A DNA stretch of 64,000 nt from an uncultured virus (IMG/VR IMGVR_UViG_3300025803_002109) (Duplodnaviria; Heunggongvirae; Uroviricota; Caudoviricetes): IMG/VR virus record IMGVR_UViG_3300025803_002109; one strand, 5' to 3'. The notes under the pieces were generated by a model, which saw only the letters and a list, made by a program, of their open reading frames with translations, had not been told where the DNA came from and did not search any database. The position numbers and the translations under genes were made by a program. Of the stretch, positions 17,079 to 30,580 are shown piece by piece (the first letter of the stretch is position 1; each line of letters begins with the position of its first letter).

Positions 17079-17485
17079 AAAAAGATTGGTTAAAACAACT
17101 TCATGAAGATCATGATGTGTCTAAAAATGATTTTTTATTTACTGATTGGATGCCCGCCATTACAATGGTTATTATTATTTTATTGGCGTTTGCCGGAGAC
17201 TCTGGAGAAATGCGCCGAAATAATTTAACTAGTTCTATCTCTGAATGTGAATTTTATGAAGGAGAAATAGTTTCTAAAGAATCAGGAGATAGTAAACCGC
17301 ACACCTTATTTGTAGTTTCTAATATTGGAAATTATGCAGTCTATGTTACCGAGACTACTTATGATTCAGTCGAAGTAAATGATAATTATTCTGGATTAGT
17401 CTGTAATTCCGATAGTGTTTTATTTCAATTTTTCGGATTCCTTTTTGAAAATCGACCGCAGATAATAGATCTAAGTGGAAACTAG
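17075..17485 (+). CDS. Membrane-anchored protein
   Basis: GTGA overlap with upstream stop; one TM then small beta domain. Confidence 0.7.
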   Translation: MKKDWLKQLHEDHDVSKNDFLFTDWMPAITMVIIILLAFAGDSGEMRRNNLTSSISECEFYEGEIVSKESGDSKPHTLFVVSNIGNYAVYVTETTYDSVEVNDNYSGLVCNSDSVLFQFFGFLFENRPQIIDLSGN

Positions 17486-17540
17486 TTCTATGTTAGTTTT
17501 CATTAGCCAAGAACCTAAATGTGCTATCCGCCCCAATCCA

Positions 17541-17557
17541 GAGGAAGTAAGGAGGGT
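17541..17557 (+). repeat. 17-bp element GAGGAAGTAAGGAGGGT, copy 1 of 4
   Basis: Exact copies at 17541, 29304, 47206, 60708. Confidence 0.9.
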
Positions 17558-17590
17558 TTTGAAGCCATAGGCTTTAAAGAAGAATATAAA

Positions 17591-17800
17591 GGCGGACCGG
17601 GAATGTGGGATTACACACTCCAAATGGCGCAAGGCTCTCCGTTGCATCTTTGCCATTACTGCTCACCCGGATTTTAACCGGCGATTCTCTCCACTTGGCC
17701 GTCATCGGAGGGTCTGTTTCCCTCGTCTATTGCATACCTTAACCTCACCTAATCGGTTTATTCAGTCACGGTCCTCGCCCACAGTCTTAAGTTGTGGGCT
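17591..17800 (-). ncRNA. Structured ncRNA of about 210 nt, manA-motif-like
   Basis: Own TTAAATAG box (17830-17823, - strand); 5' hairpin GCCCACA/TGTGGGC; GGACCG pairs with 3' CGGTCC; T-rich tail; GTGACTGAATAAAC...GGTTAAGGT and AGTAATG segments recall manA RNAs (from memory). Confidence 0.65.
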
Positions 17801-17920
17801 AATCTTGACTTATGGTGATGACCTATTTAATAGTATGCTTGTTACTAAGTGTTATCTTGCCGACTTCATAATAAGTTAATCATTATATAGTCGGTCGGGA
17901 AATCTACTGAATACCTAAAG

Positions 17921-18154
17921 GTGAATATAATGATAGATGCTGTAATTGATTTTGCTATGAACCCAAAAATACTAGCCGGAACTATGTTCCTTCTTGGTCT
18001 ACACCAGTTTGACTTCCAGAAGGATATCCCAGTGATAGGATTCTTTAGCCGAAGTAACTTCGGTGATATGGATCTTTTTATGGGAATAACCCCGCTAAAG
18101 GCTTTGGGGGCTATTGCTCTTATTGACGGATTCTTATTGCTTCGATCTCTATAA
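17921..18154 (+). CDS. Small membrane protein
   Basis: Two hydrophobic segments; AGGTGA Shine-Dalgarno suggests a start a few codons in. Confidence 0.7.
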   Translation: MNIMIDAVIDFAMNPKILAGTMFLLGLHQFDFQKDIPVIGFFSRSNFGDMDLFMGITPLKALGAIALIDGFLLLRSL

Positions 18155-18198
18155 ATAGAGAATTGAATTGATAGTTTCTGTAATGAAGGTGAATAACC

Positions 18199-18375
18199 AT
18201 GAATGCTTTGGAATTTGAAACAACTTGTTCGAGACTCTCGGATAATGTTGCGGAGGGCGTATTGCTTACTGATTCCTTGAAAGCCGCTACTTCTGCACAG
18301 CATAACTGTCTAACTCGTATTCACGCCGTATTGATGAAGTGGGGGTCGTCAAACGATGTCCAACCGAAAGAGTAG
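18199..18375 (+). CDS. 58-aa hypothetical protein (not in ORF track)
   Basis: AGGTGA Shine-Dalgarno; MNALEFETTCSRLSDNVAEG...QPKE. Confidence 0.55.
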   Translation: MNALEFETTCSRLSDNVAEGVLLTDSLKAATSAQHNCLTRIHAVLMKWGSSNDVQPKE

Positions 18376-18691
18376 GACTTCTGACGATGATGTTGCACAA
18401 GAGTTCGTGCAAGATCTTTTAGAATTAGTTACCCAGTCGATCGTGGCTAATGAACATACCAATGCCGCCATTATTCGTTTACAAGAACAACAAAAAGTTA
18501 CTGCAGACGATCTCAAACAATTATTAACTTTAGTTCGAGATGGCAATGGTCGCCCACCTTTAATTTCTCGTTTAGAAGCATTAGAGCGAACTGAACAAGA
18601 TATTCAAAAGAAAAACGCTATGTCTTGGGAAATCCTTTTGGTTGCTTTACCAGGGATCCTAGCATTTTTATCTACTATGGGTGCTATGTAG
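18356..18691 (+). CDS. Coiled-coil protein with C-terminal TM (tail-anchored)
   Basis: GNGRPPLISRLEALER then WEILLVALPGILAFLSTMGAM-stop. Confidence 0.75.
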   Translation: MSNRKSRTSDDDVAQEFVQDLLELVTQSIVANEHTNAAIIRLQEQQKVTADDLKQLLTLVRDGNGRPPLISRLEALERTEQDIQKKNAMSWEILLVALPGILAFLSTMGAM

Positions 18692-19947: not shown

Positions 19948-19994
19948 TAATTTTAATGTGAAGCATTAAATAGCAATTCGATATAGTTCATTAT

Positions 19995-21650: not shown

Positions 21651-23288
<1,638 letters not shown>

Positions 23289-30145: not shown

Positions 30146-30580
30146 GTGATTAATATGTTCGGACACAGTGCTTGGGATACTACAGTTAAATATTCCGAGG
30201 GGAGATCTTCAAAAATAATTTCCAAAGGCTATAAAGCAGAAGGAGATGATATAATTGGAGGTTCTCCAGATAAGTCTTTAGAACGCCGACCAAAAGCCGG
30301 TTCCATTACTGACTGTCAAGTTAGTGAGTGGAGTGACTGGGAAGTTTCTAATGATGGTTGTATAGAGATTCGCACTCGTAAGGTTGTTAGAGAACCTACT
30401 TGTGGTGGAAAAGAATGTCCTATATTAGTAGAAGAAAGACCAGTTGGTGCAACTGACTCTGTTTGGGGTTGGAGTGAATGGACAGCAGATCCAAACGATC
30501 CTTGTTTCGAAATCCGAAAAAGAATTATGAGATCTCCTGCTACTTGTGGAGGAAATCCAAACGATCCTTTACTAAGTTGA
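30146..30580 (+). CDS. Protein with two thrombospondin type-1-like repeats (start probably 30155)
   Basis: CQVSEWSDW...C.EIRTR.V...P.CGGK.CP.L.EER; second copy WSEW...CFEIRKR...P.TCGG. Confidence 0.75.
   Translation: MINMFGHSAWDTTVKYSEGRSSKIISKGYKAEGDDIIGGSPDKSLERRPKAGSITDCQVSEWSDWEVSNDGCIEIRTRKVVREPTCGGKECPILVEERPVGATDSVWGWSEWTADPNDPCFEIRKRIMRSPATCGGNPNDPLLS

Follow-up and report, generated by a model that had tools for sequence, protein, structure and literature searches.

The minus strand between positions 17590 and 17800 of the window (the whole 64,000-nt stretch of an uncultured virus that was analysed, IMG/VR record IMGVR_UViG_3300025803_002109) is, as we judge with good confidence, an independent gene whose product is a structured non-coding RNA about 211 nt long, this being the best joint explanation of the observations below. 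Comparison of sequences and models supports the placement of this RNA as a distant subgroup of the manA family (RF01745), homologous to it and with a shared fold, below the Rfam threshold. Within a known orphan family it would represent a new subgroup, one that scores below the threshold, is located in a new host domain and is equipped with signals that match that domain. In the literature on manA RNA and RF01745 (titles and abstracts), we found no published report of a manA-type RNA in archaeal viruses, and the word 'archaea' is absent from the text of the 2026 preprint on manA (10.64898/2026.07.01.735769). The features of the RNA gene are as follows.

17590 to 17800, minus strand: RNA gene, predicted start at 17800-17801 and predicted end at 17588-17591.
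17830-17823, minus strand: TATA-like promoter box TTAAATAG(G), read from the sequence.
17777 to 17799, minus strand: P1, the 5' hairpin GCCCACA/UGUGGGC, whose loop ACUUAAGAC holds the palindrome CUUAAG (17786-17791).
17769 to 17774 with 17594 to 17599, minus strand: P2, the closing helix GGACCG/CGGUCC; a repeat search reports the same pairing.
17756 to 17769, minus strand: core block GUGACUGAAUAAAC (14-mer), common to phage manA.
17736 to 17742, minus strand: core block UUAAGGU, common to phage manA.
Between GUGACUGAAUAAAC and UUAAGGU, minus strand: P3, a small arm of 2-3 pairs.
17660 to 17734, minus strand: P4 UGC/GCA around P5 GAGGG/CCCUC, P6 CGAU/AUCG and P7 CCGG/CCGG.
17623 to 17657, minus strand: P8, a two-part hairpin (AAUGGC/GCCAUU and GCAA/UUGC).
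17600 to 17621, minus strand: P9, hairpin GGAGUGUG/CACAUUCC with loop UAAUCC.
17576 to 17590, minus strand: T-rich tail, likely an archaeal-type termination tract by its predicted function.

The start of the RNA was placed from the spacing of the box, and its end from contig ends at 17590/17591 and the T-run. The Rfam manA model spans 17590-17799, and R1, a covariance model built from window-type RNAs, spans 17588-17802. Along the minus strand from 17830 to 17576, the TTAAATAGG box is followed by a 22-nt spacer and then by P1. The box, four stems and tail described in an earlier sequence-only reading of this DNA were all found where it had placed them. GC content is 0.52 in the RNA block, compared to about 0.37 in the window. 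The block had also been said to hold no credible ORF, and this holds true: the overlapping frames have just 43-61 codons, relatives show indels of 1 nt and 2 nt, and the ATG of the longest in-block frame is lost in relatives in the alignment. The folding energy of the single sequence is weak and unremarkable (z = -1.70). As for a 17-bp element toward which the tail had been said to run, an inverted repeat of 17 nt does exist at 17502-17518, 70 nt past the 3' end of the RNA, and it pairs imperfectly (82%) with 17787-17803 at the RNA's 5' end; it is, however, not a conserved part of the unit, occurring in 3 of the 21 loci searched, all of them near-identical to the window there.

In order to collect homologues, we combined the two most conserved core blocks into one search pattern, and both blocks therefore count less as evidence. 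This two-block pattern gave 21 loci in metagenome contigs, of which 17 are of window type, and 0 matches in IMG/VR, where the 14-mer of the copies L187 and L198 has a single different base (AAGC for AAAC). When IMG/VR was scanned again with a different block and the result passed to R1, L187 and L198 (212.7 bits) were added, as well as L227, which is of a different manA type and not of window type. R1 detects a single copy in the window, and likewise in each of three virus records. Against GenBank phages, blastn of the RNA gave chance matches of 20-27 nt only. After leaving out L135, L138 and L142 (RNA identical to the window), L144 (identical to L141) and L143 (cut off), 13 distinct homologues from marine metagenomes were available.

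The structure that we counted consists of 11 helices and 53 pairs and was drawn from the cmscan alignment and by eye. Over the 13 homologues 97.5% of cells are paired and 10/53 pairs are changed on both sides, counts that are favoured by deriving the structure from the same sequences; 10 such changes were reached in 0/500 shuffles, and slid controls gave 0-1. The compensatory changes within the subgroup are spread over six different helices. Within the subgroup, pairs changed on both sides occur in P5 and P7, in P9 (3/8 pairs) and in P1 (2/7, and 7/7 across types). In P2 there is a compensatory C-G to U-A change in L141, and in P8 a U-A to G-C change in L137 and L141, with the outer pairs of P8 changed on both sides in 6/6 across types. 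P6 is 100% paired in the model-fitted alignment, and 4/4 of its pairs are changed on both sides. The covariation bears out the earlier claim of a structured RNA, and on this comparative ground the RNA block is a real structured RNA.

The arrangement of P4 and three hairpins has a cloverleaf topology, and the 7-nt loop of P7 (UUAAAAU, closed by G-C) resembles a T-loop, as might be expected of a tRNA-like RNA or a tRNA mimic acting on the translation or tRNA-processing machinery. Yet a tRNA would not have junction linkers of 7 nt and 4 nt, ARAGORN finds 0 tRNA genes in the window, and the Rfam matches with E <= 10 between 17300 and 18100 include no tRNA family. We regard the tRNA-like reading as hardly credible.

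The box in front of the RNA is shared by all copies. In 20/20 window-type copies we found TTAAATAGG, at 61 nt before GTGAC in 19 and at 59 nt in L140, and the sequence between the box and GTGAC varies among copies. In order to compare this box to the promoters of the element's genes, we searched the window for the class TT[AT][AT]ATAG and took the distance from the first T to the ORF start. On the plus strand, 27 strict boxes were found, and an ORF starts at exactly 29 nt in 10 of them and within 26-32 nt in 14; on the minus strand an ORF starts within 26-32 nt in 1/16. The phased plus-strand boxes have the consensus ATTAAATAG (for example at 19966, 32711, 50592, 52830 and 62428). As read from the sequence, a box 29 nt before start codons implies leaderless mRNAs. 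The window ORFs that have no phased box have mostly GGAGG- or GGGGGT-type sites. With 2 occurrences in the window and 1.56 expected, the exact 9-mer TTAAATAGG shows no enrichment, and the looser phased box alone is informative. The fixed distance in 20/20 copies and the phasing of the same box class before ORFs agree with the RNA having been called promoter-driven.

In the archaeal arrangement the TATA box is centred about 26 nt before the transcription start. The TATA-like box lies about 26 nt before the start of the RNA, as it does for the genes of the element, and the RNA start was set at 17800-17801 because its box has the same spacing as the gene promoters. We found neither a sigma-70-type promoter nor a hairpin-plus-T intrinsic terminator for the RNA. 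In the 22 nt after the closing helix, T content is 32-59% in the 18 readable copies. Transcription would start from the TATA-like box at 17830-17823 on the minus strand, 0-2 nt before the first hairpin, and would stop in the T-rich tract right after the closing helix. In phage-type loci, a -10-like hexamer stands just before P1 in 45/51, compared to 14.3% of 918 background windows, and 49/83 phage-type sequences have a T-rich tail after the RNA.

Part of a 501-nt stretch is contained in 14 runs recorded as RNA. All pieces (12/12) of the contigs from 4 runs of 4 studies lie inside 17590-17791; these are assembled contigs, which show neither the strand nor the true ends of a transcript and offer no control for carried-over DNA. 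This is good evidence that RNA libraries contain the stretch, in contigs that do not reach beyond the RNA. Run X5 ends at 17591, X8 at 17590, and X6 and X7 at 17791, the loose end of X6 being a sequencing adapter; such contig ends are a weak hint of the ends of the RNA. The regions 17300-17589 and 17792-18100 are without cover by RNA contigs, which is not evidence of silent flanks.

In the window, the RNA is convergent with a gene ending at 17485 and divergent from a plus-strand box at 17883, and its orientation is opposite to that of most window genes. Seven loci are syntenic with the window, and in these, as in the window, the next gene is convergent. The remaining loci have unrelated, non-homologous neighbours, with which the RNA is co-oriented. 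The next gene after the RNA has its own TTAAATAGG box in L129, L131, L133, L137, L141, L144 and L145. In L130 and L139 a PQ-loop/SWEET-like gene lies about 25 nt after the RNA; it is preceded by a T-run and a GGTGAT-like ribosome site but lacks a TATA box.

Two observations on these surroundings may be added. In a second virus group (L129, L130, L133, L139 and L145) the RNA comes after GT1, GT2/GNT-I and GT64 glycosyltransferases and a methyltransferase, and PQ-loop/SWEET-like and MazG genes come after the RNA; the glycosyltransferase surroundings recall the sugar-gene neighbourhoods first reported for manA. Beside the RNA in the window, a 145-codon minus-strand frame (17866-18303) is probably no gene: in 7 relatives its DNA shows 96-99% identity, a higher value than for the flanking genes, it has 5 synonymous and 13 non-synonymous changes relative to L127, and it has no TATA box or ribosome site. 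The plus-strand box TTATATAG at 17883 faces, within 17883-18691, small plus-strand ORFs and an SD-led ORF at 18356.

The neighbourhoods bear on whether the RNA could be a cis-regulatory leader or riboswitch, with a fold that senses a ligand and controls read-through of the T-tract into the next gene. According to Weinberg et al. 2010 (PMC2864571), manA RNAs occupy what may be the 5' UTRs of genes for sugars, nucleotide synthesis and photosynthesis, and a leader would fit the gene close behind the RNA in L130 and L139, which lacks a TATA box of its own, and the cluster of glycosyltransferases and a methyltransferase that precedes the RNA in their group. What argues against it is that the gene after the RNA is convergent both in the window and in its 7 syntenic relatives, that the next gene has a separate box in seven relatives, and that the RNA-library contigs stop at the RNA end. 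No alternative pairing is conserved either: the pairing CCCUCC/GGAGAG suggested by cmscan is lost in L139. In the window we found no expression platform coupled to a downstream gene, and the RNA does not have the 5' UTR position that goes with the Rfam type Cis-reg; a leader fits in L130 and L139 only. Overall, we consider the leader reading improbable. The RNA had been described as stand-alone with no downstream gene, which is correct for the window with its convergent gap and with contigs that stay within the RNA; a leader role is possible in L130 and L139. A stand-alone viral RNA that acts in trans is what we consider likely, the finished RNA then acting in trans and not as a switch on a downstream gene. 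Since the RNA has its own promoter, a T-run terminator, a discrete unit in RNA libraries and unrelated neighbourhoods, the manA family may be argued to be a stand-alone gene and not a 5' UTR element.

We then consider the relationship to manA. At Rfam thresholds, no RNA family matched in the whole window. The Rfam manA model gives the window RNA 21.3 bits, under its gathering cut-off of 55.2, so that the threshold for membership is not reached. With relaxed thresholds the E-value is 0.0036 in an 801-base search and 0.28 in the whole window, and the alignment is collinear end to end, covering model positions 1-192 of 192. Such full-length alignments were obtained in 11/14 window-type loci searched (20.5-30.2 bits), the best window-type relative being L128 (E = 6.6e-4 in 66 kb); no Rfam manA match was listed at E <= 1 for L130, L137 and the cut-off copy L143. 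L132, L146 and L147 are bona fide manA, with 60.8, 79.9 and 84.1 bits, over the cut-off.

In the reciprocal direction, R1 recovers L132 with 37 bits (E of about 1e-11), and L146 and L147 at full length with about 19-20 bits; L227 is found too. On 40 phage-type loci, R1 gives 3 matches at full length (15-16.6 bits) and 4 on the core motif only, with 33 not listed, and on 21 decoy loci having a chance 14-mer it gives 0 matches. L132 is an intermediate sequence that supports kinship to manA. An alignment across types, A3, joins 12 window-type RNAs with 7 that are bona fide manA. In A3, which was fitted to the model structure and thereby favours it, 95.3% of cells are paired and 44/53 pairs are changed on both sides, compared to 18.7 +/- 2.6 both-side changes in shuffles and 7-14 in slid controls. 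The 14-mer GUGACUGAAUAAAC occurs in IMG/VR phage-type manA loci and aligns to the manA consensus with high posterior, and AAUCC in the P9 loop aligns to the conserved AAUCC of manA. Among the motifs by which a resemblance to manA had been proposed, GTGACTGAATAAAC, GGTTAAGGT and AATCC..CCC align to conserved manA positions, but the match of AGTAATG is coincidental: it is present in the window RNA, and cmscan aligns it elsewhere than the AGUAAUG of phage manA. In locus L136 (709-1241) a tmRNA gene scores 68.1 bits, over its cut-off; the manA core motif lies 33 nt after this gene and 160 nt before the end of the contig, and the truncated remainder is unmatched by Rfam manA or R1.

The alternative is a separate RNA family, not homologous to manA, with two short motifs in common by convergence or chance. 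It would account for an Rfam score under the threshold, for loops L5, L7, L8 and L9 that differ from those of phage manA, and for R1 recovering 3/40 phage-type loci at full length. It does not readily account for full-length, collinear alignments in both directions, for L132 being matched by both models, or for the same order of nine helices with pairs compensated across types. Decoys having the 14-mer give no R1 match, and the transcript boundaries are the same, P1 being directly preceded by a promoter and the closing helix directly followed by a T-run. We therefore think it very improbable that the two are unrelated. The reciprocal model, the intermediate L132 and the nine-helix layout with compensatory changes are the reasons for which we favour kinship with manA. 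The proposed resemblance is in this sense one of distant homology, seen in the end-to-end alignment and the reciprocal model, and not of membership by the Rfam cut-off.

The element that carries the RNA appears to be a large marine virus with archaeal gene signals. Nearly all window genes are on one strand. The following products were matched in the window.

Window: B12-dependent ribonucleotide reductase, family match, 523 bits.
Window: PCNA-type sliding clamp, E = 3.5e-12, full length, under the curated cut-off.
Window: Hef/XPF-type nuclease, family match.
Window: GET3/ArsA ATPase, family match.
Window: HerA/terminase-like ATPase, family match.
Window, beside the packaging gene: ATP-dependent ligase, family match.

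Magroviruses have an archaeal-type replisome, a ligase within the structural module and, in group B, a ribonucleotide reductase, and they carry bacterial-like genes too (Philosof et al. 2017, PMC5434244). The gene suite of the window fits this published description. The record of L187 has a sub-threshold match to the archaeo-eukaryotic primase, a family that among controls matched 4 archaeal genomes only. A match to the MCM family in G001 was set aside as uninformative, all 14 control genomes having matched as well. PolB was found in 0/3 of the records of L187, L198 and L227, which are fragments. In IMG/VR we found no relatives via the 145-codon frame and distant C-terminal matches only via a 632-aa protein, and a 503-aa window protein had no usable match in the protein atlas. 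Two predicted proteins (21651-23288 and 30146-30580) have thrombospondin-type repeats, namely bacterial TSP3 and, under the cut-off, spondin-like TSP1; such repeats are unusual for a virus of prokaryotes.

If the host were a bacterium, the element would be a phage with unusual promoters and the family would not be extended to archaeal viruses. The RNA pattern was found in no archaeal genome, and the cellular-genome loci with the two-block pattern have bacterial titles in 5/5. The nearest matches of the window ligase in the phage collection are phages of bacteria, and bacterial-like genes are noted in magroviruses (Philosof et al. 2017, PMC5434244). Against a bacterial host are the TATA-like box phased 29 nt before start codons, as for archaeal leaderless mRNAs, the lack of a sigma-70-type promoter ahead of the RNA, the PCNA-type clamp and Hef/XPF-type nuclease in the window, the primase match in the L187 record, and the fit to the magrovirus description. 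We regard a bacterial host as quite improbable. An archaeal host, which we call because of promoter logic and gene content, is very likely, and it would probably be a member of the Poseidoniales. The earlier attribution to an archaeal element is supported by the promoter logic and the clamp and nuclease matches, and it is not proven. The five genome loci (L148-L152) come from a Prochlorococcus single-cell assembly, two Dehalococcoidia, a gammaproteobacterial MAG and a Congzhengia MAG.

According to the preprint, manA RNAs form pentamers via intermolecular kissing loops, as seen by cryo-EM in vitro; one manA RNA uses L5-L7' and L8-L9' contacts and another uses L6-P6', L5-L7' and L3-L8', and the pentamers close in vitro into decamers or a 60-mer cage (10.64898/2026.07.01.735769). 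The preprint assigns no biological role to manA (10.64898/2026.07.01.735769). We looked for these contacts in our sequences, the mapping of the preprint's loop names onto them being our own inference. Among 83 distinct phage-type sequences, 79 have G(U/C)GGUG (L5) and a later ACCA (L7). L8 and L9 are perfect 4-nt complements in 79/79 phage-type sequences parsed, and they covary in two states, CUGU/ACAG in 69 and AUGU/ACAU in 10. In the window RNA, neither the GUGGUG (L5) and ACCA (L7) combination nor the L8-L9 pair of phage manA is present. Complementarity of at least 5 nt between its loops is limited to CUUAAG with itself and to the pairings L1-L3, L3-L9 and L1 with the P3 internal loop. As conserved contacts, L3-L9 (GAUUA/UAAUC), L1-L3 and L1 with the P3 internal loop were rejected, being lost in L130, L137, L139, L140 and L141, and so was the GGCC palindrome in L6, which is GACC in L127, L128 and L133. 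Over the window loops and the alignment of relatives, we found no conserved replacement loop pair of at least 5 nt.

The self-complementary P1 loop is invariant in 12/13 homologues, and the loop of L140 holds UGCA instead. In phage-type RNAs (L001-L120) the P1 loops fall into two classes, a GACG tetraloop and the palindromes GAUC, UGAUCA, AGCU and UAAUUA, and most P1 hairpins with no palindrome have the GACG loop. A palindrome of at least 4 nt is found in 11 of 44 distinct phage-type P1 hairpins, which are not phylogenetically independent, compared to 5.7 +/- 1.9 in the null (4/1000 shuffles reach this number), and 5/44 have a 6-nt palindrome, compared to 0.84 in the null (0/1000 shuffles). 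We take the palindromic P1 loops as a lead for a putative two-fold contact, and as nothing beyond a lead. By analogy to phage manA, the RNA would probably work as a compact, possibly multimeric, particle during infection. That the window RNA itself self-assembles is conceivable, although we would sooner expect that it does not.

manA has been an orphan RNA since 2010, and the 2026 preprint showed cage-building in vitro. The Rfam manA model misses the window-type subgroup. If the kinship is right, a binding partner or product of a manA-type RNA must be meaningful in bacterial and in archaeal cells alike, and two subgroups having a common core and different loops would tell core parts from interface parts. 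A more far-reaching reading is that one ancient RNA gene is shared by cyanophages and marine archaeal viruses and stands in each under a promoter of the host's domain, and that the archaeal version self-assembles through different contacts into a closed RNA-only particle, with the palindromic P1 loop CUUAAG as the candidate two-fold interface. As a whole this is a speculative proposal that we think unlikely to hold in full. If true, the cage would be a portable viral device with interfaces that evolve freely around a fixed core.

Finally, we compare the window RNA to known systems. ROOL, GOLLD and OLE are likewise orphan structured RNAs, with RNA-only assemblies according to the preprint (10.64898/2026.07.01.735769); they differ in being several hundred nt long, and we found no sequence or Rfam relation between them and the window RNA. 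The non-canonical manA RNAs (L132, L146, L147 and L227) share the core form AAACC...GGUUAAGGUAUGC and are matched by R1, but they keep GUGGUG and ACCA-type loops and are without the TTAAATAGG box. In common with manA (RF01745), the window RNA has a marine viral setting, a length of about 200 nt, nine helices in the same order, conserved GUGACUGAAUAAAC, UUAAGGU and AAUCC in the last loop, a promoter directly before P1, and a pyrimidine- or T-rich tail after the closing helix. In contrast to manA, its P3 is cut to 2-3 pairs, its P6 has a conserved 18-nt loop, and it has no downstream gene; and whereas phage manA has a bacterial -10 hexamer, the window RNA has an archaeal-type TATA box.
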